NCBI GenBank assembly: GCA_017444245.1
Contig: JAFSXD010000001.1
Span: 1 to 61,049, forward strand
Source of the DNA: Selenomonadaceae bacterium
GTDB lineage: Bacteria; Bacillota; Negativicutes; Selenomonadales; Selenomonadaceae
Direction of reading: 5' to 3'
DNA: 61,049 nucleotides
The position numbers were made by a program, and so were the translations under genes. The first letter of the stretch is position 1, and every line of letters begins with the position of its first letter. Below the pieces are notes generated by a model. That model was not told where the DNA came from, searched no databases, and saw nothing but the letters and a program-made list of their open reading frames with translations. Shown here piece after piece: positions 12,341 through 60,368 of this stretch.

Positions 12341-12940
12341 TTAATTAAGCGTTATACCAAATTTTTGAATCAAGTCTTTGTGATTTTTGAGTTGCTCCAT
12401 GAACTCGGGCAAAATATTTTTCAAGTATGCAAGCTCCTGCGGATTTTCGGTAAGTTCAATACTTTTTGCGTAGCGGACATACGCAAGGAACGTTTCAAAA
12501 TCTTCTTGAGTATATTTTTCTGCTACGTCGTCGCCAAAATATTTTCGAAGATTTTCGCTGATAATGTAGCAGAAAGGTCCTCCATGCTGACTTTTAAAAA
12601 ACATAGAAATTTGCGAGTCAATGTAGATTGCATTTAATTTGTTGAACTGGTTTAAGCACAGTTGCACTACATTCAAATCACAAAATCGCGGAATTAAAAT
12701 ACTCTCCGTTTCATCTTTAAGAAATATTGTATTGTGCGAAACCGATCCGACTGTTGAAGCAAAAATTTCAGAATTTGCCAAAATATTGAGCTGTGCCTCA
12801 AGAGGAACCCTTTCAGGCTGTATTATGGAATAGCCCTTAGACTGAAAATAATTTGCCAGTCGTTCTTCTCCTATTTGTTTACCAAAACCGTGAAAAAAGT
12901 AGAACTTTTTTTCCGGCAGTGTCGAAAAATTTTTCTGCAT
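12341..12940 (-). CDS. C-terminal fragment of a frameshifted GT61/DUF563 glycosyltransferase
   Basis: EKKFYFFHGFGKQIGEERL..LNILANSEIFASTVGSVSHNTIFL is present. The same frame is open back to the G-tract (QKLLYTTEYAETIDRVRNFMQ..). Confidence 0.75.
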   Translation of the reverse strand: MQKNFSTLPEKKFYFFHGFGKQIGEERLANYFQSKGYSIIQPERVPLEAQLNILANSEIFASTVGSVSHNTIFLKDETESILIPRFCDLNVVQLCLNQFNKLNAIYIDSQISMFFKSQHGGPFCYIISENLRKYFGDDVAEKYTQEDFETFLAYVRYAKSIELTENPQELAYLKNILPEFMEQLKNHKDLIQKFGITLN

Positions 12941-13536
12941 AAAGTTTCGTACTCTGTCAATAGTTTCAGCATATTCGGTGGTGTAAAGCAGTTTCTGCCC
13001 CCCCCCCCCGCGTAGAAAAGCGACGGGTCAGGTAGAATCACGTTTTGAAATTTGGTTGCGTGTGTAATTATGTTTAATCTCGAAAGGTCTACTTCCAAAA
13101 CTTGAAGAAGTTTTACAAAATTGGGAATTATGTTCTGTCCCATTAAATTTACTGCCAGCTTACAAGTTGAAAAGTATCTTTTGTAAGGATCGCTAGTCAA
13201 AAACCACAATCTTTTTATGTGATCTGTCAGACAATGCCCCCAAACAGAATTAAAAGTTCCAAGAAAAATCACAGTTTCTGGACTAATTCGTAAATCTTCA
13301 TTTGGAGTGTAAACGTCGCCAATGCCTTCATGGACTGAAGTTCCTTCTACGAAATTTCCTTTGCCGTCAATGATGCCACCGAAACCATTTAATCCAAGAC
13401 GACCATCTAAATCTAAGTGTGGCAAAATTGTTCCATTCTCGATAATTCGGAAATGCAATTTTTTATCGGAGAAATGAGTTTCGTTTAGCTTGTCGCCAAA
13501 AAATTCTCTGTTATACAAACCGTCGTAGTTTACCAT
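12871..13536 (-). CDS. N-terminal fragment of the GT61/DUF563 glycosyltransferase
   Basis: FLGTFNSVWGHCLTDHIKRLWFL is a GT61-type GH..D...RL motif. The tail after the G12 tract is out of frame. Confidence 0.7.
   Translation of the reverse strand: MVNYDGLYNREFFGDKLNETHFSDKKLHFRIIENGTILPHLDLDGRLGLNGFGGIIDGKGNFVEGTSVHEGIGDVYTPNEDLRISPETVIFLGTFNSVWGHCLTDHIKRLWFLTSDPYKRYFSTCKLAVNLMGQNIIPNFVKLLQVLEVDLSRLNIITHATKFQNVILPDPSLFYAGGGGRNCFTPPNMLKLLTEYETLCRKIFRHCRKKSSTFFTVLVNK
12998..13009 (-). repeat. homopolymer G12 (minus strand) that splits the GT61 gene
   Basis: I counted twelve C on the plus strand. The upstream frame reads ..LFYAGGGG then goes out of frame. G13 or G10 would join it to QKLLYTTEY.. 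Confidence 0.9.
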
Positions 13537-41984: not shown

Positions 41985-44900
41985 TTACTCCCAATGACGA
42001 TTGCCGGTGTTGACGGATTTAATATTCTGCCAGCCGCCGTTGCCGTCTGAAAGTCTGAAGTTGGTCTCTGTGCCGACACCCGTCACGACAACTCCGCCGC
42101 CGTCCTTAAGCACAACGTCGATTCTGCCGCTGGAAATAGCCGTCTTATCATTGTCGATGTCGTCCAAAGTTACGTCATAGAGCCAGACGAGGTCTTCAGT
42201 GCCAACAGTGGTAATCGTATCCGTGCTGGAACGGTAGACGCCTTCACTGGTGGTGTAGCCGTAGGACTTGAAGAAGAAGAAGGTCTCTTCGCCGCCGTTG
42301 CTACCAACGAGTGAATTGGTTTCGCCGCCGCCGCCCCACAGGCTCGTGGAAGTGTTGCTACCGCCGGACAAGATCGTATTGTTGGACGCGCCGCCCGCCA
42401 ATGTCAAATTGCCGTTCTGGACTGAAGACGCGTTGACCATTCCGATGCCGCCGTAGGAGACACTGTCAAGGCGTGAATCGTTCAGCCAAATGTTGACGTT
42501 GGACGTATCGGAGGAAACATTCAGAACGTCGCGCGGACGGCTGTTGCTTACGCCGCCATAGTAAATGTCGGTTTCGCCGTCATATGTGAAGGTGTTGACG
42601 CTGTTGCTGACACCAAACTTGATGTTGTAAATCTTGCTGTCGTTCGCAAATTGCGCTCTTACAGCTTTGTGATCGCTCGTCGTAAAGTCGCCGCTGATAA
42701 CAACAGTTTCGTCGCCCGAGAGGGAAACTTCCAATCTGGTTGAAGTCGCGCTGACGCCTTTGTAATTGTCACGATCGCCCAAGTACAGCAAGTCTGCCGA
42801 AGAAACGTTGACGTCTTGATCTTGACCCTTGTAGAAGTTGAATCCGGTAATCGTAGTTCTGCCGCTGCTGTAGGTTACGCCGTTAGAACTGCCGAAGTAG
42901 AAGTTGTTGCCGGATTTTGTAGTATCGTTGCCACCGGAAACGAGCACGTCATTGCCGCCGCCGACTGCAACATACTTGCGAGAACCTGCGTCTGCACTGC
43001 CGGAAACCGTAATGCTTTCGTTAGCACTTGAACCCCAAACAGTAGCTCTGGCTTCGCTTGCGACGTTGAGTTTCGTGATGTTGGAAAGTTTCGCAGAACC
43101 GAGCGTGACTTCAAACGCAGTGGTTACGGAATCAGTTACGTAAATGCCGCCGGCTTTTTCGCCTTTGTAGTAAGCACTCAAATCAGCATTCGTGCTAACC
43201 GTTGCCGTTGCATCAGGAGCGATGAAGGATACAGGCGTTCCGTTGACCAAGAATCTGTACGCGCCGTCAACCGTCGACAAACCGTTAAAGTTGATTGAAG
43301 CGTTGCCGCTGGAGGCTACAACAGCATCTCTCAATTTGAAGGAAAGGCTGTCAATGCTGTCCGCGAGCAGGACGTTTGCGCCGCTGTCCGCATCAAAGCC
43401 GCTCTTCCAACCGTAGACATCAGTCTTGCCGCTTGTGAGGGTAATCGTTGCGCCGCGTTGTCCCGATCCGCTGTCCGCACTTGCAAGCGAAACTGTATCA
43501 GTACCTGCGCCCGGATTAATCGTATCGTTAGGTCCTGCAACAATCGTGTCGTTCAAGGAAGAACCGACGACTGTATTTTCTGCGCCGCCGTTGATGCTGG
43601 AAATCATGAGCGCGCCGCCGTTGATTGTAATTTCGCTGGCGTCAAGCAGACTGCCATAGTTGCCCGCCCAGATAAGATTCTTTCTGTCGCCGACGTTCGC
43701 ATTTGTAATAATCGCCTTCGTTGCCGTAGCCGGATCGTAATCTGAACCGCCAACCGTAATTGTTGAGCCGTTAGCTATCGCAATCTTGTTGCCGTCAAGC
43801 TGAACGTTATCCGGAGTAAGTCTTGCACTGGTTGAAAGTTTCGTCGCAACGATAACGTCTCTGTCATCAAAGCTGTAGTCCGCAATTTCAAAAGCGTTCG
43901 TGTCATAGAAGTAGTCGATACCTGCGCCGCCTTCGATGTAATCTGAACCGGAACCGTAGATCGTATCAGAGCCCGAGCCGCCCAAAATGGTTGCCGCGCC
44001 GCCTCTGTTGTAAATGTACGAGCCATTGTCGCCAGCTTTGACGTAGTTGTTACCTGTCGCCTTAGGTCCAATCAAGATTGAAACATTTCTTGCGCTGGTG
44101 CTGCCAAGAATCGTGTGGTTGGTTGCGAATGCGGCAATATCGGAATCAGTATTCATACCGACAGCAATAAGGGTGTTCGGGCTACCGGTTGCGTCGATAA
44201 CCGCAGTGCGAATCGTGGAAACTCCCGTGCGCAGACCTTCAAGATATTCAACGTTAATCGGGTTGCTGATGTAGGACTGCAAGGTTATGTTGCGCGGGAA
44301 TGTGCCGTCAGCTGCACCAAGCGGTTCGTCGCCGTAAATGTTGACGCCCGTTCCTTGAGCAACAGTTTCAGGAGAATCAACCGTTGCACTTGCATAACCG
44401 GCAACTGTTCCATATGTCCCATCGAAAGCTTGCGTGGTTTCGTTATAAATGTTGTAGAAGTCGTGGAAAGCCTCAACCGTCGTGTTGCCGCCGTTCAAGC
44501 TGCTTGCCAACTGATTAACCAAGCTGTCGCGGTCGATACGGATTTGAGCAACAACAGAGTCTTCAGCAGTGACATTGCCGATGCTGTCAACATACAAGTA
44601 ACCGATACTGTCATTGACTTCAACCGTTGCACTTGAACCGACGCTGTAAACGCCCGCGCCAACCGTAATTGTTGAGTTCTTCGCAATGCCGCCGGTAATT
44701 GTGACATTCGGTTTTGCACTGCCGGATTTGCTTACGTACATCTGAATTGCGGATGCCGTTGAATCCAACACGCCGTCGCTACCGCCGTTCATGGTTACGC
44801 CAACGTCATTAATCGCCATAGCAACCGTATCTGTGGACGCCGCCATAGCTGAATCGTAAGTGAAGCCCGCCGCAAAGACGCTGTCGCTCGCAGTCTTGAC

Positions 44901-47276
44901 TGTGTCGCCAACCTTCAAGCCGCCGACGCTTACGATAGCATCATTTTCACCGGAAACGATGTAGGCACTGTCAAGGTTGGAGCTTGAAGATGCGCCCAAT
45001 GTGACTTCTGCCGCGTTAACCGTGACTTTAGCCGTACCGCCGGAAGAAACCGTAGAATCAATATCGTAGTAAACTGTGCCGCCGGTTACGCTGTAAGCAT
45101 CGCCGTCAACAACGTCGTTAACCGTGATTGAGGATGAGCCGCCAAGCGTGAAGTCAACCGCGCTAACTGTATTCGTAAGTTTCGATACGTCAAATTTATC
45201 GTTAATCGTGAAGTGGCTGTCGCCTGAAACCGTTGCGCCGGAGTTCAAACTCGTGATTCCTGCGAGACCCGCAACGGAAACGTCTGAATCGAGTTGTACA
45301 ACGATTTCATTATTGCTGTCGTGAGCAACGACACTTGCGCCGTTAAAGCTACCGCTAATTGTATTAGCTTCGCCGGCAACTGTTACTGTAGCGTCAGCCG
45401 CCATAACTTTCAAGGAATCGCCTGCGCCGAGTGATACACCTGCGCCGGTTGAATCCATAACTACCGCGCCGACTGATGCGCCCGAGACCGTCCAAGCTGT
45501 GCCCATAACTTCAACGCCGGAAAGTGTTGCACTGGAAGGTGCGCTGATTGTCATGTTGCCCGTCAAGCTGGAAACTGCGGAGACTGACGCGCCGTTTACA
45601 CTGCTTGCCGTGAGTATCGCATAGACGCTGTCCGTTGCTCTTGCAAATGTTGCAGTAACTCCGCCAACGTTAACTGTACGTGCGCCGCTACCGCCCTTTA
45701 CGAGCCAGTTGCTACCTTCGTTGAGTGCCGACGCTGCAGTTACGAGTGCTGAACTGTTGAGAGATACACTCTGTCCGCTGCTCACCGCAAGGGTATCGCC
45801 CGCCGCGCCTACAACTGTTCTTGCTTGACCGCCGGACAACAACATTGTGCCTGCGCCCGTACCGGAATTGACTGTGATGTTACCCGAAGCGTCGAGTACT
45901 GCATTAATCGTCGCGGCACTGTCATCTTCAAGATCAACATCCCAAGAAGAGCCGCTGATAATTCCCAAAGCATCGTGATCGCCGACCGCGTTAATTGTCA
46001 CGTTGCCGCTTTCAGGATTGAAGAGAGCCGCCTGCGCACCGGTGGCACCTGCTGTGATAGTGCCTTGCACGCTGTCAAACGCAACCGTATCATTACCGAG
46101 TTGAACAGCACCTGCACTGCTTGCAACTGTCCAACGTCCATTCGCCGCAAGAGCGTCAACCGCTTTGATTACGGATGAGTCAGTAGATTGACTTACGACA
46201 GAGGCGGTTGAACCGCTAGCAAGAGCAACTGCGCCGCCGCTTGCACCGTCGCCAACAGAGAACACGCCGGCATTGTTCGCATGCGCCGTCATCAACGTGC
46301 TGTCTACCGGGTAAACTTCCGCCTGCGTCGTAGCAACACCGTTGAGAATTACGCCGTTTACGTCTACTGTATCTCTGGGGCTTGAACCTGAACTTGAGAA
46401 TTCTACGCCTGCGCCATTTTCTACGTTCAACGCAAGATAATTGCCTGCGCCCTTAGTAGCCGTGAATGATTCGCCAACTGCGGCGGCACTCAAAGCACCA
46501 AATACTACGTTGTTGCCGTTAGATACGTTCCAAATTTGATTTGCGTCAACAGAAGAGAGCGCCGCATTGCCTGCCGCCTGAATCGTTACTGCGTCGTTTG
46601 AGTCTGTCGAACCTGTCAACGTAACCGCATTACTACTCAAAGAGACATTGATTGACGCGCCGTTAAGAGTTTGACGGAACTGTGCCGGTGCGGCAAGTGT
46701 AGCCTGCACTGCGCCGCGCAAGCTGGAATAATTTACGGCATTGTTGCTTGCCGTCATGCCAAGAGACGCGGCATTTGAAACAGCCACCGTATCAAGCAAG
46801 GAGTCATTGTTGGTATATCTGACCAAGAAAGTATCAGCTTCGCCGCCGCCGGTCAACCAGAGAGGACTGCTAACAGAGACATTCTCGGCGAACGTCAATT
46901 CTGGAGTAGTTGATCCTATTGAAGCTTCCTCAGCTGTGCCAACGCTGGCGTATCCGTAGGCTGTAACAGATTTATTTTCTCCCTTAGTGATTACAGCGGC
47001 ATTAGCCGGAACACTAGCCTCACCACTGCTGAAGGCGTAGACAGTTGCGGAAGAAGTTACCGTATCAGTGCGATAAATAACGCCGTCAACATCGACTGTA
47101 TCGCCTGTAACGGTCGTAGGTGTACCACTATCGTCGACGCCACCATTCACCGAAATAGCGCCACTGGATGCCCTGATGGTTGGGTTAGCGTCCAAAGCAA
47201 ACAGTTGCAAATCAAACTCCCAATTTTTCGTTGTCATAAAGAATGGCGTCAAGACCTCGTTACATGAGAGGGACAA
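41985..47276 (-). CDS. giant Gly/Ser/Thr/Ala/Val-rich surface/secreted protein with RTX-type GGxGxD repeats
   Basis: GGSGSDTIYGSGSDYIEGGAGIDYFYD is present and there are no Cys residues. The start is either the TTG at 47276 (11 nt after AAGGAGG) or the ATG at 47237 (MTTKNWEFDLQLFA..). The first ~80 codons of the track ORF lie in the leader. Confidence 0.75.
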   Translation of the reverse strand: MSLSCNEVLTPFFMTTKNWEFDLQLFALDANPTIRASSGAISVNGGVDDSGTPTTVTGDTVDVDGVIYRTDTVTSSATVYAFSSGEASVPANAAVITKGENKSVTAYGYASVGTAEEASIGSTTPELTFAENVSVSSPLWLTGGGEADTFLVRYTNNDSLLDTVAVSNAASLGMTASNNAVNYSSLRGAVQATLAAPAQFRQTLNGASINVSLSSNAVTLTGSTDSNDAVTIQAAGNAALSSVDANQIWNVSNGNNVVFGALSAAAVGESFTATKGAGNYLALNVENGAGVEFSSSGSSPRDTVDVNGVILNGVATTQAEVYPVDSTLMTAHANNAGVFSVGDGASGGAVALASGSTASVVSQSTDSSVIKAVDALAANGRWTVASSAGAVQLGNDTVAFDSVQGTITAGATGAQAALFNPESGNVTINAVGDHDALGIISGSSWDVDLEDDSAATINAVLDASGNITVNSGTGAGTMLLSGGQARTVVGAAGDTLAVSSGQSVSLNSSALVTAASALNEGSNWLVKGGSGARTVNVGGVTATFARATDSVYAILTASSVNGASVSAVSSLTGNMTISAPSSATLSGVEVMGTAWTVSGASVGAVVMDSTGAGVSLGAGDSLKVMAADATVTVAGEANTISGSFNGASVVAHDSNNEIVVQLDSDVSVAGLAGITSLNSGATVSGDSHFTINDKFDVSKLTNTVSAVDFTLGGSSSITVNDVVDGDAYSVTGGTVYYDIDSTVSSGGTAKVTVNAAEVTLGASSSSNLDSAYIVSGENDAIVSVGGLKVGDTVKTASDSVFAAGFTYDSAMAASTDTVAMAINDVGVTMNGGSDGVLDSTASAIQMYVSKSGSAKPNVTITGGIAKNSTITVGAGVYSVGSSATVEVNDSIGYLYVDSIGNVTAEDSVVAQIRIDRDSLVNQLASSLNGGNTTVEAFHDFYNIYNETTQAFDGTYGTVAGYASATVDSPETVAQGTGVNIYGDEPLGAADGTFPRNITLQSYISNPINVEYLEGLRTGVSTIRTAVIDATGSPNTLIAVGMNTDSDIAAFATNHTILGSTSARNVSILIGPKATGNNYVKAGDNGSYIYNRGGAATILGGSGSDTIYGSGSDYIEGGAGIDYFYDTNAFEIADYSFDDRDVIVATKLSTSARLTPDNVQLDGNKIAIANGSTITVGGSDYDPATATKAIITNANVGDRKNLIWAGNYGSLLDASEITINGGALMISSINGGAENTVVGSSLNDTIVAGPNDTINPGAGTDTVSLASADSGSGQRGATITLTSGKTDVYGWKSGFDADSGANVLLADSIDSLSFKLRDAVVASSGNASINFNGLSTVDGAYRFLVNGTPVSFIAPDATATVSTNADLSAYYKGEKAGGIYVTDSVTTAFEVTLGSAKLSNITKLNVASEARATVWGSSANESITVSGSADAGSRKYVAVGGGNDVLVSGGNDTTKSGNNFYFGSSNGVTYSSGRTTITGFNFYKGQDQDVNVSSADLLYLGDRDNYKGVSATSTRLEVSLSGDETVVISGDFTTSDHKAVRAQFANDSKIYNIKFGVSNSVNTFTYDGETDIYYGGVSNSRPRDVLNVSSDTSNVNIWLNDSRLDSVSYGGIGMVNASSVQNGNLTLAGGASNNTILSGGSNTSTSLWGGGGETNSLVGSNGGEETFFFFKSYGYTTSEGVYRSSTDTITTVGTEDLVWLYDVTLDDIDNDKTAISSGRIDVVLKDGGGVVVTGVGTETNFRLSDGNGGWQNIKSVNTGNRHWE

Positions 47277-47654
47277 GACGCACTCCACCTCCTTAAAACA
47301 TTTACAAAAAACTTTTCGCCGTTGAGGCGAGTGCGGGCTTTTTGACAATGCGTAGAAGTTGAACATACGCATTCCTAATCTTAGGGACGCCGCCCGATAG
47401 CGTTCATTAACGACGCTTGCGCTCTCCGCGAAGGAAGCTGAACTCGTCGATTCAAAAAATTTCTTACCCCTCCTTCTTGCGGATACGCACTGCGCCAAAT
47501 ATTTCATCCGACACCGCAAACCACGAAGTCGGCAGTAGATTAGAAATGGAACTCAAAGAAAGAGGATGAGTCCGCGACCAAGCTTTTGGCGAGTGATCAA
47601 TTCGCCGCCAGGTCAACACGTCGCCCGAGACCTCCTTGTCTCAATCGCGGCTAT

Positions 47655-51901: not shown

Positions 51902-52031
51902 CGATCCATCGATCTATCGATCCAACGATCTAACTTATGTGACCAATTTTCGGTTTGTAATCGCTACTCAAAAAATTTTTCGCTTCCCGACTATCCATCG
52001 ATCCATCGATCTATCGATCCAACGATCTAAC
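51838..52031. repeat. 2 x 97-bp tandem duplication covering the mqnA start, its RBS and the GATCGAT-type repeat
   Basis: 51838-51934 and 51935-52031 differ at one position (cacttcc vs cgcttcc). This explains the two track ORFs that both start MTNFRFVIATQKIF. Confidence 0.95.
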
Positions 52032-53862
52032 TTTGAATCCAAAGGAGTTGATATTTTTCCATTTGTTTCAAAACGTGATCGAAGAAAGGTTTTGAAGTGT
52101 CGGGGTGCGCCAAGAAAAGTGAATAAGTTTTTTCAAGCGGAACTATCAAAAGCTTTGCTTGCTCCGTCAAAACTTCGGCAGAAATAATTGTGCGGGGATT
52201 TTGAATAAAAACATTTTCGTTAATCCAACCGCCTTTAGAAATGATATCCAACGCCTTGAACCAACCGTCGCCCTTGTCCAAACTTCGCGCCAACTTTCCT
52301 TCGACGACGAAAATCAAATTTTCCCTCAAAATATCCCCGTAAATTCTGTCGCCTTCAAATTTCGTGACAAGTTGAGTGCTGTCCGCGAAGAAAGCCAACG
52401 TGCCGCCGCCGCTGCCTTGAAGTATCGGATGCTGTACGATGAAGTTTGAAATAGTTTTTTTGTCGTCCGAAGATTGAAATTGCCCGCCTTCTTCAGTTTC
52501 GATTTTCATTTGGTGCATGAGTTTTTCCATAAAAGTTTTGAACGGCGAATGCCAATGCACGAGCATTTGACGCAAGACGAGATTGTAAATTCGCGCGAAA
52601 CGTTCACCGGCGTTTTGGAAAAATTTATTGGCGTCGTAGAGGAAAGTTAAAGATAAAGTTGTTTCCGCGTACTGAAAATAAATTCCGAGCTTGACGCCCT
52701 GCGGATCCCATGAATTTGTCGTGACGACTGCGCCAAAAGGTTCTGCCTTCGTCTCTGAATAAGTTGCCTCCTTCGTCCCCTTGAAGTCGAGGAAACTAAG
52801 GAAGTGATCAAAAGTTTTTCCCTTCGTCAATTCTTGGAGCGTGTCCCAATCAGAAAAACCGTAGGGTTGCGACACGACGAGTTGACGAAACTGTTGCGTT
52901 ATGATTTGTTCGATTGTCATATCGTCGGGACTTTTTTGGCGCACGGGAATGACATTGAACGCGGACTCATTGCCCTTTGAACCGGCACTGAATTGACAGA
53001 AAATCACGTCGTCAAGCGTGCGCGTTGACTGCAGGAAAAATCCCCATGCACTTTGCAAAATCGTCATCAACATTACGCGGCTTGACTTTGCTTTTTCGCG
53101 CAGGTCGGACAAAATATCTGCGGGAATATTTTCACGAAACGCCTTCGGATTGTACGGCGCATTTGAATGTTTCGCGTAAGGTAACGTCGGCATTTGCGGT
53201 AAATCTTTCAAAAGTTTTGACCAGTAATCGCGAATTGCCGTTTCAACATTTTTTTGTTGTGTGCCGCCGGAAATTTTTTTGACGCGCTTAAATTTTTCTA
53301 TGCCCAATGCCGAAAGGAAAAAATTTTTTGGATCGAAGGCATTTGAAATTAACCGCGACATCGTGACGAGGACAGCAAATTCATTTTCTTCCGTCTTTAA
53401 GATTGTGAATCGGATTAAATTACCGCGCTTCACGTCGAAATTAACGCGGCGGTCGGCTTCCATGATTTTCGTTAAAGTTTCGTCAATTTCTTCAGGGTCT
53501 GCTTGCGAAAGCGCGCGATAAACGACATCTGGCAAAGTGCGCCGCTCAACGAAAATAACTCTGACGGTTCGGTTTTCGAGTTCGCAAAAATTTGAACGAA
53601 AGGTGTCGTCACTTTTAACCATGTCATGGACAACGCGATTAAATTTTATCGGCGTGATGTCGCCTTGAACTTTGTAAAGCGTCTGCACAGAAAAATAGGG
53701 CGATATAAATTGTTTCTGCGCGAAGAAAACTTTTTCGTCCGTCGTCAACTCCTCAACTTTTTCAATTTGGTTGGGATTGTAGCCGACAGAGCCGGTAAGT
53801 TGCCGCCCATAAACTGTCTCCAAAATATTTTTTTCGGTCGCCGTTAATTTCAAAATGCTCAT
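52027..53862 (-). CDS. condensation (NRPS C)-like domain lacking the HHxxxDG histidines, fused to a cNMP-binding-like C-terminal domain
   Basis: FAVLVTMSRLISNAFD sits where HHxxxDG is expected. RDYWSKLLKDLPQMPTLPY and MTILQSAWGFFL are C-domain-like. The C-terminal LIFVVEGKLARSLDKGDGWFKALDIISKGGWINE is a CAP-type beta-barrel pattern. Confidence 0.55.
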   Translation of the reverse strand: MSILKLTATEKNILETVYGRQLTGSVGYNPNQIEKVEELTTDEKVFFAQKQFISPYFSVQTLYKVQGDITPIKFNRVVHDMVKSDDTFRSNFCELENRTVRVIFVERRTLPDVVYRALSQADPEEIDETLTKIMEADRRVNFDVKRGNLIRFTILKTEENEFAVLVTMSRLISNAFDPKNFFLSALGIEKFKRVKKISGGTQQKNVETAIRDYWSKLLKDLPQMPTLPYAKHSNAPYNPKAFRENIPADILSDLREKAKSSRVMLMTILQSAWGFFLQSTRTLDDVIFCQFSAGSKGNESAFNVIPVRQKSPDDMTIEQIITQQFRQLVVSQPYGFSDWDTLQELTKGKTFDHFLSFLDFKGTKEATYSETKAEPFGAVVTTNSWDPQGVKLGIYFQYAETTLSLTFLYDANKFFQNAGERFARIYNLVLRQMLVHWHSPFKTFMEKLMHQMKIETEEGGQFQSSDDKKTISNFIVQHPILQGSGGGTLAFFADSTQLVTKFEGDRIYGDILRENLIFVVEGKLARSLDKGDGWFKALDIISKGGWINENVFIQNPRTIISAEVLTEQAKLLIVPLEKTYSLFLAHPDTSKPFFDHVLKQMEKYQLLWIQS

Positions 53863-54061
53863 CTCCGTTACTGAAAACTTATAGAAAGTTGTAAACTCTT
53901 ATGTTTCATTCCTGATTCATCGCGTCCGCTTTTGCCGAAGCTACTCACGTTTGGTGTAACGCTCCACAGGCTTCAATTCCCCGCTAACGTACGGGTATTT
54001 TTTCAATCAGCTCGCGTATCGTTTTAAATTTATCGCCGCTTGTAAATCCCGGTCTATTTCG

Positions 54062-54127
54062 TTACCTCCTTACCAATTTTGTAGGACCTTTAGAATTTTT
54101 TACACCTTTTTTTCAACTGTTGAAAGC
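54062..54127 (-). promoter_or_regulatory. ~67-nt conserved leader element, copy 1, containing the palindrome TTTCAAC-N-GTTGAAA
   Basis: The minus strand reads GCTTTCAACAGTTGAAAAAAAGGTGTAAAAAATTCTAAAGGTCCTACAAAATTGGTAAGGAGGT, roughly four-fifths identical by eye to 60912-60978 on the plus strand. Confidence 0.6.
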
Positions 54128-54153
54128 TTTCTTTCATCTTCCAATCTGAAAAG

Positions 54154-54192: not shown

Positions 54193-54231
54193 AATAAAAA
54201 AAACTGACAACGAATTAAATCCGTCATCAGT
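54193..54231 (-). terminator. rho-independent terminator after the HPr-fusion gene
   Basis: On the minus strand: CTGATGACG-gatttaatt-CGTTGTCAG (imperfect stem) followed by TTTTTTTT. Confidence 0.5.
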
Positions 54232-54278
54232 TGGAAAAAGTTTAGTCAAAAAATTTCGTCAGAAAAAATCTCTCTGTA

Positions 54279-55961
54279 TCATGCCAAAACTTTTTTCAAG
54301 CCGTCAATGTATTCTTCCGTCGACGGCAAATAGATGTGTTGCCTGCTCTCAGCTACAGGTTCGGCAATTTCCGCAATAAGGTTGTATGCAAATTGCGGGC
54401 GATCTTTGGATGCGTACATGTCCTTCAAGGTATCGCCGTCCAACGTCTTACTAAGTTTATCGGCTATCGTGTCAGCTTCCGTTTTGTTAAGAATAAAATC
54501 AACTGAAACTGTCTGAAATTCATCTTCCAAAATCTTGCACATTTTCTTGCTGTCATCTTCGATAATTTCATCGGTTACAGCTTTTGAAACTTTGCTTGCC
54601 GCAGTGCTCGATAACCAAGCAGCAATTAACATTCCTACTGGTCCAAAGGGAGCACCCAACATCGCGCCGCCAATTCCGCCTGCGACTCCTGCGCCAGAGT
54701 TCACAACATTTTTGAAAAGTTGAGACGCCGAAATTCTGCCGCGAAGAATATTTATCACGTCGCCCGCTGACATAATCGCAACCGTTGCAATTCCCGTGAC
54801 AGCATTCCCGCGCAGTAACTTAGACGCACTTTTCATTGCCGCCGCCCCGTAAATACTCGTGCCTTCTCTGAAAGCATTCACCAAATGTGCTGACATCTTC
54901 GGACCCATAGCTTTAACGAGTGCATCGGACGCAGGAATAAGCATTGTGTTGAAGCCCGCCTTCGTAATTTGTCCCGCTACAATCGAACCTGCCCATGCCA
55001 TGCCGCCGACTTGCAAGCCCGCTTTAACCGAATTTTCCAAAGCAACTTCAAAAGATTCACCGTTCCAAATGCAAACCGCAAAATTTATCGCCGCAGAAAT
55101 TCCGCCACTGTACGCGCCAATTTTTATTCCGTCTATCGCGTCATAAGTCAATGATTCGATTGTTCCCGCCTTCGCAATATTTTTTGCCTGCTCGTAAGTC
55201 ACATTGCCTTTGCGGATAATGTCTTCAGCTTTTTTGACGCCGCGAATTTGTCCTCTATCAATTCGACTTTGCATTGCTCTAACCGCGTCGTCGTACTTAT
55301 CGGCGGGAACTTCAATTTGCATTGGCGAACCGTCACGATTGTAATAGCGAAATTCTCCGTTGTGGAAACATTCTTGAACACACTTTGAGCCGGTGGCACA
55401 GTACTTGCTTTGAATGTTCGCGCCGTTTACGAGTCTGTCCGCACCGTTTTTAGCGTTGTCGTCGCCGACAATGTGTGCGTCTTTGCCTGTCATTCTGTCG
55501 TACAAGTCATTGGCGCGTTCTGCGGCAAAACCATGCCCCTTTGAACCGTGAAATTTTTCTTCAAAGTAAACCTTTTCTGTACCAACAAAAGCACCTTGTG
55601 CAAGTCCTGTATTTTTTGCGCCGCGTGAAGGTTCATTATTTGAAAAATGAAACCCTTCCGCACTTTCTTCTTCCTCTTCAAGATCAACAAAATAGCCTTC
55701 TTCGCCGAACCTGCTATCTACGAGTCTCTTCAAAGTTTTCACTGCCTCGTATTCGTCAGGTCCATCCGCCGCGATAGTAATTTCCGTGCCTTTAGTCAAG
55801 CCCATGCTCATAATCATGAGAATACTTTTCGCGTCAACTCTTTTGCCTTTCGCTTTAATCCAAACTTTTGATTTGAACTTGGACGCAGTCTGCACGAACA
55901 CCGACGCGGGGCGCGCATGAATACCGGTTTTGTTTTCGATAGTAGTTGTAAGCTCAAACAT
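54279..55961 (-). CDS. HPr (PTS phosphocarrier) domain fused to a ~470-aa domain of unknown function with a Gly/Ala-rich membrane-active-looking C-terminal half
   Basis: The N-terminal 88 aa align to HPr: KTGIHARPASVFVQTASKF (His15), VDAKSILMIMSMGLTKG (Ser46), EITIAADGPDE. Next comes KGHGFAAERANDLYDRMTG..GDDNAKNGADRLVNGANIQSKYC, followed by GGISAAINF.., AGLQVGGMAWAGSIVAG.. and GAGVAGGIGGAMLGAPFGPVG. Confidence 0.8.
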   Translation of the reverse strand: MFELTTTIENKTGIHARPASVFVQTASKFKSKVWIKAKGKRVDAKSILMIMSMGLTKGTEITIAADGPDEYEAVKTLKRLVDSRFGEEGYFVDLEEEEESAEGFHFSNNEPSRGAKNTGLAQGAFVGTEKVYFEEKFHGSKGHGFAAERANDLYDRMTGKDAHIVGDDNAKNGADRLVNGANIQSKYCATGSKCVQECFHNGEFRYYNRDGSPMQIEVPADKYDDAVRAMQSRIDRGQIRGVKKAEDIIRKGNVTYEQAKNIAKAGTIESLTYDAIDGIKIGAYSGGISAAINFAVCIWNGESFEVALENSVKAGLQVGGMAWAGSIVAGQITKAGFNTMLIPASDALVKAMGPKMSAHLVNAFREGTSIYGAAAMKSASKLLRGNAVTGIATVAIMSAGDVINILRGRISASQLFKNVVNSGAGVAGGIGGAMLGAPFGPVGMLIAAWLSSTAASKVSKAVTDEIIEDDSKKMCKILEDEFQTVSVDFILNKTEADTIADKLSKTLDGDTLKDMYASKDRPQFAYNLIAEIAEPVAESRQHIYLPSTEEYIDGLKKVLA

Positions 55962-56019
55962 AAAATCCCTCCTTCACATTAACCAAAACTTATGAAATTA
56001 CGCAACATTCCTGCATTTT

Positions 56020-56049
56020 ATTCTACCCCCCCCCTCAAAGATTTGTCAA
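56020..56049 (-). promoter_or_regulatory. promoter of the HPr-fusion gene with a G9 tract in the spacer
   Basis: On the minus strand: TTGACA (56049-56044), aatctttga, G9, then TAGAAT (56025-56020). The spacer is 18 nt. A 58-nt leader ends in AAGGAGG and the ATG at 55961. Confidence 0.65.
56026..56034 (-). repeat. homopolymer G9 (minus strand) inside the promoter spacer
   Basis: I counted nine C on the plus strand (56026-56034). Confidence 0.95.
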
Positions 56050-56093
56050 GAATAGATTCAGAAAATTTTTGTCTTGAATTCATTCTACTTCCT

Positions 56094-56432
56094 TTAGTTT
56101 GCAAAATACTCCGCGATTTTCCAGCCCGCCGATTCAACCATTGCAACGGTCAAGATGCTTGGATGTATCATTGGACATGAAATTGGAATCCACATTCTCT
56201 TGGACAGGAATTGTTTGTTAAGTTTCTCCTGCGCAATCTTTGTTGCAAGAGTTTCTGAAATTGTAACATTGGAAACTTTTACCAACGCCATCGTCATTGT
56301 CGTAAGTGCTTTTTCGTCGACCGCGTCAAGCTCATAGGGTATCATTATATGATTTTTCCCCGACAACACGTCACGCGCATGGTGTTTAATGACGTCTTCG
56401 CACTGATGTTTTTCGGCTTTTGTCATCGCCAT
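56094..56432 (-). CDS. small DUF697-like paralog A (112 aa)
   Basis: MAMTKAEKHQCEDVI.. ..MVESAGWKIAEYFAN. It shares its termini and leader with paralog B. The DUF697 assignment is from memory of the family pattern. Confidence 0.65.
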   Translation of the reverse strand: MAMTKAEKHQCEDVIKHHARDVLSGKNHIMIPYELDAVDEKALTTMTMALVKVSNVTISETLATKIAQEKLNKQFLSKRMWIPISCPMIHPSILTVAMVESAGWKIAEYFAN

Positions 56433-56640
56433 GAAACATTCCTCCTCTGTGTGACTGAAAAATAATTTACCTGTGCATAAGATACAACAATCGCAATTTC
56501 ATTTTGTAATTGTCATTTCCCCATTCAGAAAATTTTTCACGGTTTAATAAATGTGAAGGAGCGCACGTCCTTGTACGCCCCCTCAACCCAAGTTCAAGTG
56601 CTGAACAGTATCCGTTTTCATGAAGAAATTTTAGTGGAGA

Positions 56641-56829
56641 CTATTTCATTTGTTTCAATTTTTCATCGTAGTATTTCACTCTGGCGTAATGTCTTTTTGC
56701 AATGCCATAGTGTGGACCTGCCTCAACGTCGTTGGACGCATTTTTAGCCGCCGCCCATTCGCGTTTGGCATTTTTCAAAGCACGATCCCGCGCACTTTCC
56801 GCAAGTTCACGCTTTCTTTCTTCCGTCAT
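56641..56829 (-). CDS. small charged helical protein (62 aa)
   Basis: MTEERKRELAESARDRALKNAKREW.. with an AAAGGAGGTG RBS. The track ORF starts further upstream, inside paralog B. Confidence 0.5.
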   Translation of the reverse strand: MTEERKRELAESARDRALKNAKREWAAAKNASNDVEAGPHYGIAKRHYARVKYYDEKLKQMK

Positions 56830-56833
56830 ATTT

Positions 56834-57184
56834 TCACCTCCTTTGATTCGCAAAATTTTCCGCGATTTGCCAACCCGCCGATTCAATCATTGTGACAGTC
56901 AACGCTGCTGATGCAATGTTTCCAAGTCCGGGAAAAATTTTCACGAACTCTGAAACAACCATTTTGCCTGCCAATTCTTTCAACGCGTTAACCGCCGTAG
57001 TTGCGGCAAGAGTTTCTGACATTGAAACGTTGAAAGTGTTTGCCAATGCCATCGTCATCGTCGTAAGTGCCGCCACGTTAATCGGCGTGCCGACTCCAGG
57101 TATCAGTGAACCACCAATGACAGCCCACGCGTGACCGTGAATGATGTCTTCGCACTGATGTTTTTCGGCTTTTGTCATCGCCAT
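56834..57184 (-). CDS. small DUF697-like paralog B (116 aa)
   Basis: MAMTKAEKHQCEDII..GGSLIPGVGTPINVAALTTMTMALA..FPGLGNIASAALTVTMIESAGWQIAENFANQRR. Confidence 0.65.
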   Translation of the reverse strand: MAMTKAEKHQCEDIIHGHAWAVIGGSLIPGVGTPINVAALTTMTMALANTFNVSMSETLAATTAVNALKELAGKMVVSEFVKIFPGLGNIASAALTVTMIESAGWQIAENFANQRR

Positions 57185-57393
57185 GAAACATTCCTCCTCT
57201 TTGTGACTGAAAAAATAATTTACCTGTACATAAGATACAACAATCGCAATTTCATTTTGTAATTGTCATTTCCCTATTCAGAAAATTTTTCACGGTTTAA
57301 TAAATGTGAAGGAGCGCACGTCCTTGTACGCCCCCTCAACTCAAGTTCAAGTGTTGAACAGTCTCCGTTTTCGTGAAGAAATTTTAGTGGAGA

Positions 57394-57450
57394 CTATTTC
57401 ATTTGTTTCAATTTTTCTTCGTAGTACTTTCTACTTCGGCGTATCTTTTG
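57394..57450 (-). pseudogene. decayed remnant of a second copy of the 62-aa gene
   Basis: The 3' end ctatttcatttgtttcaattttt.. is identical to 56641-56663. After that it diverges, with an internal deletion. Confidence 0.55.
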
Positions 57451-57461
57451 CCGTCCTGTCG

Positions 57462-57821
57462 TTAACTCCTTTGATTTGCAAAATTCTCCGCGATTTGCCA
57501 ACCCGCCATTTCAACCCTTTTATAAGCCGTTGGGTCAATCACCATAGGGATAAAACAAAATGGGAACATCAGAGGCTTCATCAACCCTGTTATCAACCCT
57601 GAAACGAAGGGCAATTTAGCCAATTCTTCTTCGACGTTTTTCAGCGCGTTAACCGCCGTAGTGTTAGCAAGAGCTTCCGTCATCGAAACGTTGAAAACTT
57701 TTGCAAGAGCCAGCGTCATTTTTGTGAGTTCTGCCAAATTCACAGGCGCGCAACCAATCACAGCGGCACACTTGCAAATGATGTCCTTGCACAATTTTTT
57801 TTCAGCCTTTGTAATTTTCAT
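57462..57821 (-). CDS. small DUF697-like paralog C (119 aa)
   Basis: MKITKAEKKLCKDII.. ..VEMAGWQIAENFANQRS. Confidence 0.6.
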   Translation of the reverse strand: MKITKAEKKLCKDIICKCAAVIGCAPVNLAELTKMTLALAKVFNVSMTEALANTTAVNALKNVEEELAKLPFVSGLITGLMKPLMFPFCFIPMVIDPTAYKRVEMAGWQIAENFANQRS

Positions 57822-57909
57822 AAAAACTTCTCCAATCGATTAAGTGAAAAGTTATCTTCGACGCGCCCCGCGCATTTTGTACGAGGACGCGTTTTTTTTC
57901 TTCCGTCAA

Positions 57910-58269
57910 TTATTGACGTCTTTGATGCGCAAAATCTTCTGCCATTTGCCAGCCCGCCAATTCAACCGTTGTGCATGTCAACGAAACCGGCAAAGTCTCT
58001 CCCCTGTTGGGAAATTTTTCTATGTACTCTCTAACATTGATTCTGCGTTCAACTTCTTTCAGCATGTTAACCGCCGTAATTGTTGCAAGAGTTTTAGTCA
58101 TTGAAACCTTAAACATTTTCGCCAACGTCCGCGTCATCTTTGTAATTTCTTCCAGATTAACGGTAGGACCAAATTTTGTTTTGAGCGATCCGCCGATGGA
58201 ATGCTTTGTGTGATAGCGAATGATTTGTTCACATTTTTGACGTTCGGCTTTGGTAATCAACGTTCTCAT
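57910..58269 (-). CDS. small DUF697-like paralog D (119 aa)
   Basis: ..ITKAERQKCEQII.. ..VELAGWQMAEDFAHQRRQ. Confidence 0.6.
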   Translation of the reverse strand: MRTLITKAERQKCEQIIRYHTKHSIGGSLKTKFGPTVNLEEITKMTRTLAKMFKVSMTKTLATITAVNMLKEVERRINVREYIEKFPNRGETLPVSLTCTTVELAGWQMAEDFAHQRRQ

Positions 58270-58315
58270 GAAAAATTCCTCCTGTAATTCAGAAAAGTTT
58301 TACCGACAAAATTTT

Positions 58316-58579
58316 TTACTGTGAAAATTTGTCAACGAGCAAGTCGAAAATATTTCTTGCCAAATCACGCGGCGTGTGTGACAAATCCGCGCCCTTCGAC
58401 CTGTTGTCGTGTTTGCACATCGCCTGCAAGTTCCAATCGCTGTCCGGTCCGCCGTATTTTTGCGGGATAATGTGATCCACGTCCATTTCGGACTTTCTGA
58501 AATTCTTTCCGCACTCGGGGCATTTGTGCCAGCCGCCGTGCGTTTTGTGCGAATCGAAGTAGTCTTTCCTGTAACCCAT
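58316..58579 (-). CDS. mini HNH endonuclease (87 aa)
   Basis: CPECGKNF..MDVDHIIPQKYGGPDSDWNLQAMCKHDNRSKG. The ATG at 58579 follows an AGAGGAGGAAA RBS. Confidence 0.8.
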   Translation of the reverse strand: MGYRKDYFDSHKTHGGWHKCPECGKNFRKSEMDVDHIIPQKYGGPDSDWNLQAMCKHDNRSKGADLSHTPRDLARNIFDLLVDKFSQ

Positions 58580-58739
58580 AAAAAAATTTCCTCCTCTGTA
58601 AATCACCAAAAAATTCATTTAAAGTTGCTTGCAATATTCAGTTTTCAAAGAACCCTTCAAAAAAGTTTTTACTTTTCTGTTGTCGAGCGTCGAAGTATTT
58701 GTCGCCGACCGCTGTTGAAACCTCCTACTGTAATAATAA

Positions 58740-59015
58740 AACACTCGGGATTTTATTTTGTAATTGTCATTTCCGCGTTCAGAAAAATTTTTTTGGAAGT
58801 TTTATTCTAGTCTCTTTAGTGTGCAAAATTCTGCGTTCAGAAAAATTTTTTTGAAATTTATTCCGGTCTCTTTCGTGTGCAAAATATTCCGCGATCTGCC
58901 GACCCGCCGATTCAATTTCATCTTCTCTGTGTGACTGAAAAAATTTATCCATGTGTAAGATACACCAAGCGCAATTTCAATTTGTAATTGTCACTTCCGC
59001 GTTCAAAGATTTTTT
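58740..59015 (-). pseudogene. stack of collapsed paralog copies: leader fragments fused directly to paralog 3' ends
   Basis: 58745-58790 and 58960-59010 repeat the leader core (attttgtaattgtcatttcc..ttcagaaaa). 58866-58916 is a paralog 3' end (..IESAG.QIAEYFAH) joined straight to the RBS-proximal leader (ctctgtgtgactgaaaaa). Confidence 0.6.
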
Positions 59016-59093
59016 AAACTTTCTTTGTGGGCAGGAAATTTTAGCCGCCGTAAAGAATTAAACAAAAAACTTTTCATTGGGGGGAAAAATTTT

Positions 59094-60368
59094 ATGGGTT
59101 TAATTCAAGCGGCGATTAGTGCTGTCGGCGGAACGCTCGGAGATCAATGGAAGGAACTTTTCTATTGTGACAGTTTAGGCGCGGATATTTTGGCGGCAAA
59201 AGGACATCGTCGCACGCGCAGAGGAAGTTCCAACGCCGGCGACGATAACATCATTACGGACGGGTCGCTTATCTCCGTGAACAACGGGCAATGCATGATG
59301 ATCGTTGAGCAAGGAAAAGTTGTAGACTTCTGCGCGGAGCCCGGCGAATACACGTACGACAAAGGAACTGCGCCTTCGCTTTTCTCCGGTGGCAGTCTCG
59401 CTTCAAACATTCAAGCAGTTTTTCATGAAATTGGCAGACGTTTCACTTTCGGCGGCGACACGGGAAAAGATCAGCGCATTTACTATTTCAACACGAAAGA
59501 AATTGTCGGCAACAAGTACGGTACGCCGAGCCCCGTTCCCTTCCGCGTCGTCGATTACAATATCGGCTTGGACGTGGACATTGCGATAAAATGTTTTGGT
59601 TCGTACAGCTACAAGATCGTCAATCCGATTTTGTTTTACACAAACGTTTGCGGCAACGTGGCAGAAACTTATAATCGTTCGGAAATTGATGCGCAGTTGA
59701 AAACGGAATTGATGACGGCGTTGCAACCTGCCTTCGCAAAAATTTCTGAAATGGGCATTCGTTACAGCGCACTGCCGGGACATACTCAAGAAATTGCCGA
59801 CGCGTTGAACGAAGTCTTAAGCAAGAAATGGGGCGAACTGCGCGGCTTGCAAGTCGTATCTTTCGGCGTCTCCAACGTCAGCGCAAGCGAAGAAGATGCC
59901 GCAATGATTAAGGAAATGCAACGTAACGGCGCATTGAGAAATCCGGCAATGGCGGCGGCTCATTTGACGGGCGCACAAGCAAGCGCAATGCAAGCGGCGG
60001 CGAACAACACGGCAGGCGCAATGACAGGATTCATGGGCATGGGCATGGCGCAGAACGCAGGCGGTGCTAATCCCGCAAATCTTTTCGCTATGGCTCAACA
60101 ACAAACTCAACCTCAACAGAATCAACCGCCCACATGGAAATGTCCGTCTTGCGGCAACGAAGGCAATCGAGGAAATTTCTGCATGAATTGCGGCGCAAAA
60201 AAACCTGCACCTGTCGCCGGTTGGAAATGCGAATGCGGCGCGACCAATACAGGAAGATTCTGTTCAGAGTGCGGCAAACCGAAACCTGCTTCAGACGAAT
60301 GGACTTGTTCATGCGGCGCAGTCAACAAAGGAAAATTCTGCGCGGAATGCGGAAAACCCAGAGCGTAA
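59094..60368 (+). CDS. SPFH-domain protein of the COG4260/YdjI type with three C-terminal zinc ribbons
   Basis: MGLIQAAISAVGGTLGDQWKE.. Then CPSCGNEGNRGNFCMNCG, CECGATNTGRFCSECG and CSCGAVNKGKFCAECG. The ATG at 59094 follows a GGGGGG run. Confidence 0.75.
   Translation: MGLIQAAISAVGGTLGDQWKELFYCDSLGADILAAKGHRRTRRGSSNAGDDNIITDGSLISVNNGQCMMIVEQGKVVDFCAEPGEYTYDKGTAPSLFSGGSLASNIQAVFHEIGRRFTFGGDTGKDQRIYYFNTKEIVGNKYGTPSPVPFRVVDYNIGLDVDIAIKCFGSYSYKIVNPILFYTNVCGNVAETYNRSEIDAQLKTELMTALQPAFAKISEMGIRYSALPGHTQEIADALNEVLSKKWGELRGLQVVSFGVSNVSASEEDAAMIKEMQRNGALRNPAMAAAHLTGAQASAMQAAANNTAGAMTGFMGMGMAQNAGGANPANLFAMAQQQTQPQQNQPPTWKCPSCGNEGNRGNFCMNCGAKKPAPVAGWKCECGATNTGRFCSECGKPKPASDEWTCSCGAVNKGKFCAECGKPRA

Follow-up and report, generated by a model that had tools for sequence, protein, structure and literature searches.

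An HPr–YeeR_C fusion gene with a putative poly-G promoter switch beside a DUF697-like array with its own mini-HNH gene

Separate occurrence of the YeeR_C gene and the HNH/DUF697 cassettes

A 61,049-nt stretch of DNA from a Selenomonadaceae bacterium (contig JAFSXD010000001.1; the whole stretch is called the window here) carries an accessory island in which a mini-HNH endonuclease gene, four small paralogous genes (D, C, B and A in the order of transcription), a gene for a 62-aa protein and a gene for a 560-aa protein with an N-terminal HPr domain follow one another on the minus strand. This island probably consists of two unrelated accessory modules lying side by side: a putatively switched gene that joins HPr to a core of the YeeR_C family, and a lineage-specific array of DUF697-like genes with its own HNH gene. 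As far as can be read from the DNA, what is new here would be a rare HPr-fused, poly-G-switched member of the catalogued YeeR_C family, together with a small family of HNH/DUF697 cassettes. The first-pass annotation of this DNA had proposed that all of these genes form a single undescribed system. Its components were borne out, as the HPr fusion, the DUF697-like paralogs and the mini-HNH each have profile matches (through relatives in the case of DUF697); the single system was not, because a paralog was found in 0 of 87 YeeR_C loci and a related HNH in 1 of 87.

For these numbers, all six frames of 87 YeeR_C loci (80 from GTDB species representatives and 7 metagenomic, with flanks of 6-10 kb) were searched; the queries were the paralog profiles together with the HNH and 62-aa proteins. 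The 62-aa gene, like the paralogs, was absent from all 87 loci, and the one related HNH (in locus L087) is longer and lies about 3 kb off. A census of 149 flanking genes revealed no conserved partner of YeeR_C. WYL/WCX regulators stand beside it at 12 of 80 loci, XRE regulators at 6 of 80, TerB at four loci and a 140-aa protein of no known kind at 13 loci, and the other neighbours are housekeeping genes such as argS, YkuD, clpX and lon. In L002, the closest relative with usable context, a sister gene that is fused to ACP and is 84% identical in its C-terminal part has no paralogs or mini-HNH upstream; it lies downstream of homologues of the genes at 24.1-25.7 kb of the window and thus at another chromosomal site.

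Separation in the opposite direction was also observed. Five other contigs (L010 and L013-L016) have the mini-HNH immediately before a paralog and share a homologous intergenic region and ribosome-binding site (RBS). Downstream of the pair in L010 come a terminator and a gene that does not encode YeeR_C; from inspection by eye, we take the product of that gene to start like LarB. Because HNH and paralog occur together with no YeeR_C gene downstream, they form a module of their own, and because the loci are separable both ways, two units are supported, namely the YeeR_C gene alone and the HNH with one or more DUF697-like cassettes. Thus, the co-occurrence proposed in the first-pass annotation holds for HNH and paralog, which are found together in these five contigs, and fails for the three components, which were found together nowhere else.

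The HPr–YeeR_C gene and its promoter

The fusion gene (54279-55961, minus strand, as are all features of the island described below) is preceded by the promoter TTGACA–18 nt–TAGAAT at 56020-56049, which is the best sigma-70-like site in the region, with 11 of 12 consensus matches. Its spacer consists of aatctttga followed by a tract of nine G residues (56026-56034). At the aligned promoter position, the three closest YeeR_C genes have tracts of different lengths (G9 in the window, G10 in L001 and G12 in L002); the L001 and L002 promoters share the −35 region CTTGAC(A/T)AA, and the poly-G tract abuts the −10 hexamer. No upstream tract of at least seven residues was found in the other 90 YeeR_C open reading frames (ORFs) examined, and tracts of at least eight occurred just three times in 841 kb of other YeeR_C loci. 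The presence of tracts at the same position but of differing length in relatives makes the call of a phase-variable gene, and the contingency-type promoter named in the first-pass annotation, well supported at the level of sequence, and classic promoter phase variation of the fusion gene is the well-supported prediction. Slipped-strand mispairing would alter the length of the tract and with it the spacing between −35 and −10, toggling promoter strength, as the anatomy of the promoter and the lengths in relatives suggest; a G8 tract would give the optimal 17-nt spacer.

Poly-G or poly-C tracts between −35 and −10 are known from porA and opc of Neisseria and from fim genes of Bordetella. As in those promoters, a G/C homopolymer of at least nine residues fills the spacer in the window, and its length differs among related loci (9, 10 and 12). 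The window differs from them in coming from a rumen/gut Firmicute, in a Selenomonadaceae neighbourhood, and in that the gene encodes a predicted cytoplasm-facing membrane protein rather than a known surface antigen as in Neisseria and Bordetella; switching here is read from the DNA sequence.

Other homopolymer tracts were observed in the sister locus and in the window. In L002 (1750-1930), the gene with two ACP domains joined to YeeR_C has the G12 tract in its promoter and, right after an RBS-preceded ATG, a C9 tract; this ATG is out of frame with the long ORF, which suggests double, transcriptional and translational, phase control of that gene. In the window, a G9/C9 tract (9351-9359) lies in the 238-nt overlap of two minus-strand ORFs (9260-10234 and 7536-9461) that have no Pfam matches; a slip of ±1 would fuse the frames into a product of ~900 aa, making this a candidate phase-variable gene of the frameshift type. 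A C12/G12 tract (12998-13009) lies in the overlap of the minus-strand ORFs 12871-13536 and 12341-12940, the downstream frame of which matches Glyco_transf_61, and this split glycosyltransferase-61 gene is likewise a candidate for phase variation.

The protein begins with an HPr domain (aa 1-88; 55698-55961). The match spans aa 5-82 (PF00381, E = 1.8e-30, 105 bits against a cut-off of 23; TIGR01003, E = 3.6e-31, 107 bits against a cut-off of 47.9), and the best PDB match of the domain is the HPr-related protein 3le5 (E = 8e-27). In the translation, both His15 (GIH15ARPAS) and Ser46 (DAKS46ILMIMS) are present, as they are in the ortholog P0005. We calculated the ratio of nonsynonymous to synonymous substitution rates (dN/dS) against the L001 ortholog for each part of the protein. 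This ratio was 0.054 for HPr (dS 0.64), 0.12 for the C-terminal domain, 0.27 for the soluble core, 0.36 for the helical region and 0.74 for the linker. The lowest value being that of the HPr module, HPr is the most constrained part of a functional protein rather than a recent gene-conversion artefact, and from its residues the module is predicted to be a bona fide, phosphorylatable HPr. It carries 470 further residues and so is not a stand-alone phosphocarrier of ~85-90 aa, and all equivalog models remained below their cut-offs. An HPr with its active-site His covalently joined to another module is also found in FruB and DhaM (PRK11109, PRK11377). Their partners, however, are phosphotransferase system (PTS) or kinase domains, whereas the partner in the window is a membrane protein with no relation to the PTS, and, unlike FruB and DhaM, the fusion has sister genes that bear ACP or EF-Tu where HPr stands.

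For the C-terminal 450 aa, more than 2,368 homologues (cluster representatives) emerged from a word-indexed search among 5.8 billion proteins, and a precomputed match to PF27347 (YeeR_C) was present in 120 of 120 homologues among the matches listed. We assigned the window protein to YeeR_C through these PF27347 matches of its homologues and through BLASTP against YeeR: the fusion protein is 33% identical to enterobacterial (Klebsiella/E. coli) YeeR over 406 columns (E = 1e-65), and tblastn also links the two. Searches of the fusion protein against local copies of Pfam, NCBIfam, PADLOC, PHROGs and the PDB returned HPr only, plus sub-threshold Gly-zipper matches, and a look-up of the exact 560-aa sequence found it not on record. 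The enterobacterial homologue, of 838 aa, is encoded between irmA and the Ag43/Cah autotransporter gene. YeeR has been called 'uncharacterized' and co-transcribed with the phase-variable agn43 (PMC4807369; PMC6480617), and phase variation of E. coli yeeR stems from the Dam/OxyR-controlled agn43 promoter (PMC4807369). Our literature search found no mention of PF27347 and no function given for YeeR. The possibility, raised in the first-pass annotation, that the C-terminal domain belongs to a well-characterised family is therefore half realised: the domain falls in the catalogued family PF27347, but YeeR_C is a family without known function, housekeeping or other.

The window protein and enterobacterial YeeR share ~390 homologous residues, the motif GHGFAAER…GADRLV…IQ.KYC and a Gly-rich membrane region, and, if the promoter of the window gene switches as predicted, they would also share phase-variable expression, which for yeeR occurs in the agn43–yeeR–irmA operon of CP4-44-type islands. 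They differ at the N-terminus, where a soluble HPr in the window stands against a ~400-aa part with multiple transmembrane segments in the 838-aa enterobacterial protein; in the switch, a poly-G promoter tract versus Dam/OxyR; and in context, as the window gene, unlike enterobacterial yeeR, has no autotransporter, IrmA or GTPase neighbours. The YeeP-like GTPase beside enterobacterial yeeR was considered as a link between YeeR and DUF697 and was rejected, as this GTPase has no DUF697 domain.

Across the family, the core is combined with different modules. These are N-terminal zinc ribbons, a ~145-aa uncharacterised domain (GKxGYxFTD), which is the commonest, an RnfB-type Fe-S domain, HPr (in the window and in P0005), two tandem ACP domains (in P0001) and, at the C-terminus, TerD, rubredoxin, Sel1 or an EF-Tu-like GTPase. 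In some genomes, two YeeR_C genes stand in tandem (L006/L007/L018, L021 and L096), for example genes for proteins of 395 and 467 aa in a metagenome-assembled genome of Selenomonadales.

An AlphaFold2 (AF2) model of the C-terminal 451 aa, built from a 114-sequence alignment, had a predicted local distance difference test score (pLDDT) of 77 and consists of a soluble domain modelled with confidence, an extended helical region rich in Gly and Ala, and a helical C-terminal domain. The soluble α/β domain (aa 126-270; 55152-55586) is modelled as α-β-β-β-α-β with pLDDT 82-97 (helix 33-48, strands 53-55, 67-69 and 72-76, helix 82-87 and strand 106-109). The Gly/Ala-rich helical region (aa 271-465; 54567-55151) contains two or three hydrophobic, Gly-zipper segments, and the C-terminal domain of YeeR_C (aa 466-560; 54282-54566) contains helices with pLDDT 79-94. 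The gene ends at an intrinsic terminator (54202-54232; 14-bp stem and T-run) that is kept in L001. Hydropathy of the fusion protein peaks at aa 281, 388 and 430. The Gly-zipper segments noted in the first-pass annotation are supported by sub-threshold matches to C19orf12-like in 17 of 37 family members and to Gly-zipper_Omp in 11 of 37; many members also have sub-threshold matches to DUF1269 and DUF3482, and NCBI names a Lactococcus homologue a 'glycine zipper family protein'.

The most conserved block of the core, GHGFAAER…GADRLV.G..IQSKYC, falls in the soluble domain, which we describe as PD-(D/E)xK-like. In the model, the first helix would carry E148, strand 2 would have D175 at its start and strand 3 would carry Q184-x-K186, and all four residues (E148, D175, Q184 and K186) are invariant in alignments of 37 and 114 sequences and in Klebsiella YeeR. 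As modelled, this E…D…QxK placement fits the layout of a PD-(D/E)xK core (acidic residue on α1, Asp on β2, (D/E/Q)xK on β3). Foldseek gave no significant match of the C-terminal model in the PDB or BFVD; the best local matches were the CdiA-CT tRNase 4g6v_A (E = 3.8, probability 0.33) and a phage VRR-NUC (E = 2.5, probability 0.35), along with CdiA-CT-like structures. Pfam and PDB sequence searches with the YeeR_C core yielded no nuclease family. We take the likeness to PD-(D/E)xK as a weak lead from the model and not as a finding.

One could go further and propose that YeeR_C proteins are membrane-anchored PD-(D/E)xK effectors with HPr, ACP or EF-Tu as decoy sensors, which report phage or toxin attack and set off an abortive response whose cost is limited by phase variation. 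Such a role would agree with the conservation of E…D…QxK on a predicted αβββαβ core as far as enterobacterial YeeR, with the local Foldseek matches to a CdiA-CT tRNase and VRR-NUC, with the fusions to HPr, two ACP domains, EF-Tu GTPase and TerD, with the WYL/WCX and XRE regulators that adjoin some loci, and with the location of YeeR in prophage-like islands, inside a phase-variable operon (PMC4807369). We nevertheless consider it unlikely: the Foldseek matches fall short of significance (E > 1, probability at most 0.35), sequence searches link the core to no nuclease family, the surroundings of most members are ordinary (downstream of argS or close to clpX/lon, for instance), PADLOC has no matches, and YeeR_C had one match in 50,697 phage records.

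We instead favour the view that the gene is a stand-alone YeeR_C member in which a variable N-terminal adaptor precedes the cytoplasmic α/β domain, the Gly-zipper membrane region and the C-terminal helical domain. The HPr module would couple the core to the phosphorylation state of the PTS or to partners of HPr, and the ACP, EF-Tu or Zn-ribbon modules of paralogous genes would couple it to other partners. The activity of the core itself may be nuclease-like or ligand-binding.

The DUF697-like array and its HNH gene

The minus strand of 54.2-59.0 kb carries every element of the first-pass annotation at the coordinates given there: the HNH gene, the paralogs (all four of them intact), the genes for the 62-aa protein and the 560-aa HPr fusion, and the G9 promoter with the terminator. 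In the direction of transcription, the array begins with a copy of a leader repeat (58922-59014) that adjoins a divergent SPFH/zinc-ribbon gene. It is followed by remnant E, the 38-nt 3′ end of a fifth paralog (58879-58916; 92% identical to the 3′ end of B; profile E = 5e-5), and by a partial leader repeat (58736-58791) upstream of the HNH. The mini-HNH gene (58316-58579) encodes 87 aa from an RBS-preceded ATG (Pfam HNH, E = 1e-12; HNH_5, E = 6e-9) and lies 46 nt upstream of paralog D (57910-58269; 119 aa), after which comes a decayed 5′ fragment of a 62-aa gene (57867-57909; repeat family D11). Paralog C (57462-57821; 119 aa), which has a hydrophobic insertion, is followed by a decayed 3′ fragment of a second 62-aa gene (about 57393-57449; 94% identical to 56641-56697) and by the second copy of a terminator-like hairpin (57307-57338). 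A further leader repeat (57194-57290) precedes paralog B (56834-57184; 116 aa), the copy nearest to the family consensus and the one with the best profile score among the paralogs. The intact 62-aa gene (56641-56829), for a charged helical protein, starts 5 nt past the B stop, overlaps an 81-aa TTG ORF of the ORF list and is followed by a terminator-like hairpin (56554-56585). The last leader repeat (56442-56537; 96 nt, with a hairpin inside) begins with the box AAAATTTTCTGAA and stands upstream of paralog A (56094-56432; 112 aa), a divergent DUF697-like copy. With its terminators and separate leaders, the region falls into no fewer than four transcription units. Recent duplication, as first annotated, is evident in ~290 nt that are repeated with 94-97% identity (56388-56697 and 57140-57449). 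The gene decay claimed alongside it applies to remnant E and the two 62-aa gene fragments that flank C and does not apply to A-D, which are intact.

Paralogs A-D are 30-49% identical in pairs, and a single family profile matches all four (E = 1e-21 to 7e-44). None of them matches PF05128 directly at E ≤ 0.1. Among relatives detected with the profile, 19 of the 56 sampled match PF05128 (best E = 2.7e-7), some are fused to MMR_HSR1 or dynamin GTPases, and several are named 'DUF697 family' by JGI. Through these matches and names, the DUF697-like label of the first-pass annotation appears correct but remote. The shared motif is IIH..A.AA….P.PG…D….M…LA.VFG … IP..G……E..GW..A..F; B fits it best, and the PxPG loop is missing in A and deleted in C. 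DUF697 is the domain of E. coli YcjF and is known from GTPase-linked membrane proteins, whereas the copies in the window are stand-alone proteins of 112-119 aa, in tandem and weakly hydrophobic. Judged by these profile matches, the small paralogs appear to be remote members of DUF697 that stand alone and belong to a rare lineage. A word-indexed search returned seven relatives, and a HMMER profile scan of 1.84 billion representatives returned 162 clusters at E ≤ 1e-3, mostly of 110-130 aa. No paralogs were found in GTDB species representatives, IMG/VR, PLSDB plasmids or INPHARED phages, and JGI metagenomes contained one paralog locus (L017).

Orthologs of individual copies were recovered. B has orthologs of 97%, 86% and 85% identity (dN/dS 0.15 against L013), and the pair of B and the 62-aa gene recurs in L008, where B is 97% identical and the 62-aa product is identical. 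The C ortholog P0130 (88% identity) shares the indels of C, the D ortholog P0128 is 70% identical, and all pairwise dN/dS values were below 0.6. The shared peculiarities of the C and D orthologs, together with low dN/dS, indicate that the paralogs are diversified genes and not pseudogenes, and we rejected pseudogenisation of the whole array on the grounds of intact ORFs and dN/dS < 1. Distant members of the family are found either alone or next to small, unrelated partner genes, and their contexts vary. In Anaerobutyricum soehngenii (L101/L102, 5600-10300), a 122-aa DUF697-like relative and small ORFs lie between a WYL regulator and reverse transcriptase (RT)-Cas1/Cas2, adjoining an AAA_15/RloB pair, which is a defence-island context for an otherwise context-less family.

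The mini-HNH matches PF01844 with 48 bits against a cut-off of 21.4. Its motif DVDH-IIPQKYGG…WN-LQAMCKHDN, with CPEC before it, has the catalytic ββα-metal pattern, so nuclease activity is predicted, and its dN/dS is about 0.2. We considered and rejected the possibility that it is part of an IscB or Cas9, as the HNH motif alone matches (24-27 bits against cut-offs of 175-375). The paralog that follows the HNH differs between loci (D in the window, B-like in L013, P0124-type in L010), as do the flanks, and the arrays in L009 and L017 have no HNH at the first position. As a small HNH-only ORF (PF01844) between genes, with presence/absence polymorphism among related arrays and differing downstream paralog types, it resembles the free-standing HNH homing endonucleases of phages and mobile elements. 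Unlike phage HNH genes, it has no phage context (paralogs were found in 0 viral contigs); it also has no recognised DNA-binding module (NUMOD, AP2), and at 87 aa it stands at the small extreme of its family.

An alternative interpretation of these genes is a toxin–immunity or toxin–antitoxin island, with the HNH as a DNase toxin and the paralogs and the 62-aa protein as immunity proteins or antitoxins. A paralog right after the HNH in every case, in an operon-like arrangement, tandem and diversified paralogs with decayed copies, and purifying selection on both HNH and paralog would all be expected of such an island. We think it improbable, however, given an HNH of 87 aa with no trafficking or secretion domain, arrays with no first-position HNH, distant paralog relatives that stand alone in varied contexts, and the association of DUF697 with membranes and GTPases rather than any known role as a nuclease inhibitor. 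The array is, in our preferred interpretation, built of repeated units, each a leader, a gene, an optional 62-aa gene and a terminator, and the HNH would be a free-standing gene that resides in one cassette's leader and is transcribed together with the paralog downstream. Most likely the HNH is a selfish, homing-type gene whose breaks would favour duplication, deletion and gene conversion of cassettes.

The 96-nt leader repeat starts with a AAAWTTTTCTGAA box and holds an imperfect palindrome, ACAATTAC…GCGATTGT. We rejected the leader repeats as promoters, as no sigma-70 site in them reached the scan threshold. They have no match in Rfam, and their fold z-score of −2.3 is unremarkable. With up to one mismatch, AAAWTTTTCTGAA has 21 matches against 2.6 expected, and two copies (58778-58790 and 58288-58300) bracket the HNH insertion. 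The exact box was absent from every fetched locus. It may be an operator, an UP-like element or a mere flank of the repeated unit.

Arguments for a single system, and the surrounding genes

In the single system envisaged by the first-pass annotation, the HNH, the paralogs, the 62-aa protein and the HPr fusion would serve conflict or defence, with a PTS-gated membrane effector for which the small proteins would be interchangeable partners or immunity subunits. We judge this to be an unlikely account. Besides the lack of paralogs at the 87 YeeR_C loci, the different site of L002 and the HNH–paralog pair with no YeeR_C gene downstream, the division into several transcription units speaks against it, as does a profile–profile comparison of the paralogs with YeeR_C, which found no relationship (probability 1.5%). 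In PADLOC-DB 2.0, the fusion protein, the 62-aa protein and paralogs A and C had no match. The matches of the other two paralogs are weak (E of at least 1e-3; B to PDC-S29, E = 0.0011; D to Cas1fv, E = 0.017), and the HNH matches generic nucleases (E of at least 3e-4). In favour of a single system are the co-orientation and tight packing of the genes, the Gly-rich, membrane-type segments of both the DUF697-like proteins and the YeeR_C core, the presence of the AAAWTTTTCTGAA box at every cassette border and before the fusion-gene promoter, and synteny fragments in L001 and L009 that are compatible with the same arrangement.

The last two of these points, and three others, weigh against our reading of two modules or of their parts. 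The 61 kb contain five exact copies of the AAAWTTTTCTGAA box, each at a cassette border, and one of them stands immediately upstream of the fusion-gene −35; a shared box could mean co-regulation. L001 has an HPr–YeeR_C gene followed by the condensation-domain gene described below, and L009 has the same SPFH–leader–paralog synteny as the window. In L001, 97 nt lie upstream of the HPr–YeeR_C gene before the sequence ends, as would be the case were a repeat array next, and this end position indicates that the juxtaposition may be conserved in close relatives. The fragments are compatible with a juxtaposition conserved in the lineage and, since contigs break in the repeats, linkage in close relatives may exist. 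The shared box and the synteny fragments keep the single-system model alive at low probability. As for the modules themselves, the poly-G lengths are those of consensus assemblies rather than within-population data, the spacers (18 nt, 19 nt and, in L002, 16 or 21 nt according to which −10 is chosen) lie at or beyond the optimum, so that no ON state was observed among them, and no homing site or target is established for the HNH. A quite improbable extension would make YeeR_C a widespread, unrecognised class of membrane-anchored PD-(D/E)xK-type effectors with exchangeable HPr, ACP, EF-Tu and TerD modules, copies of abundant host proteins, as decoys or adaptors that register attack on these proteins or their state, the window clade hedging its bets through poly-G and the HNH/DUF697 array serving as a second, independent conflict module.

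Around the island, the gene divergent from the array (59025-60368, plus strand) encodes a protein of the SPFH/Band_7_1 type; it contains a linker rich in Gln and Ala and, at its C-terminus, three CxxC…CxxC zinc ribbons. On the other side, a stand-alone 611-aa protein (52027-53862, minus strand) has a nonribosomal peptide synthetase (NRPS) condensation domain (E = 1e-20) and a weakly matching C-terminus like cyclic-nucleotide-monophosphate (cNMP)-binding domains; its gene is syntenic with the fusion gene in L001. Between the 611-aa gene and the fusion gene lies an insert of ~265 nt (about 53870-54140) that is missing from the syntenic L001. It contains an orphan RAGATH-18 RNA (53909-53970, minus strand; Rfam RF03064, 73.8 bits against a gathering score of 44.9). 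RAGATH-18 is the reRNA (right-end element RNA) scaffold of IS607 TnpB nucleases (PMC11061315). No TnpB gene lies beside the RNA in the window, and the insert is likely an IS607 relic. Farther away, a 1,844-aa ORF (41985-47519, minus strand) has no Pfam match, and G+C there is 51-53%, compared to about 44% elsewhere.

A new multi-gene defence system would have mattered more than two separate modules, and the co-occurrence data do not back one. The three poly-G/C tracts in 61 kb suggest that homopolymer contingency switches may be common in this rumen/gut lineage, in which they have been little studied. The YeeR_C family is large: its cluster representatives number more than 2,300 and come from Firmicutes, Synergistota, Desulfovibrio and Enterobacteria, and its E. 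coli member belongs to a well-studied virulence-island operon. For this family, the window offers a conserved putative catalytic or ligand site (E148, D175, Q184 and K186), a rare architecture with a constrained HPr, and a conserved, predicted poly-G switch.

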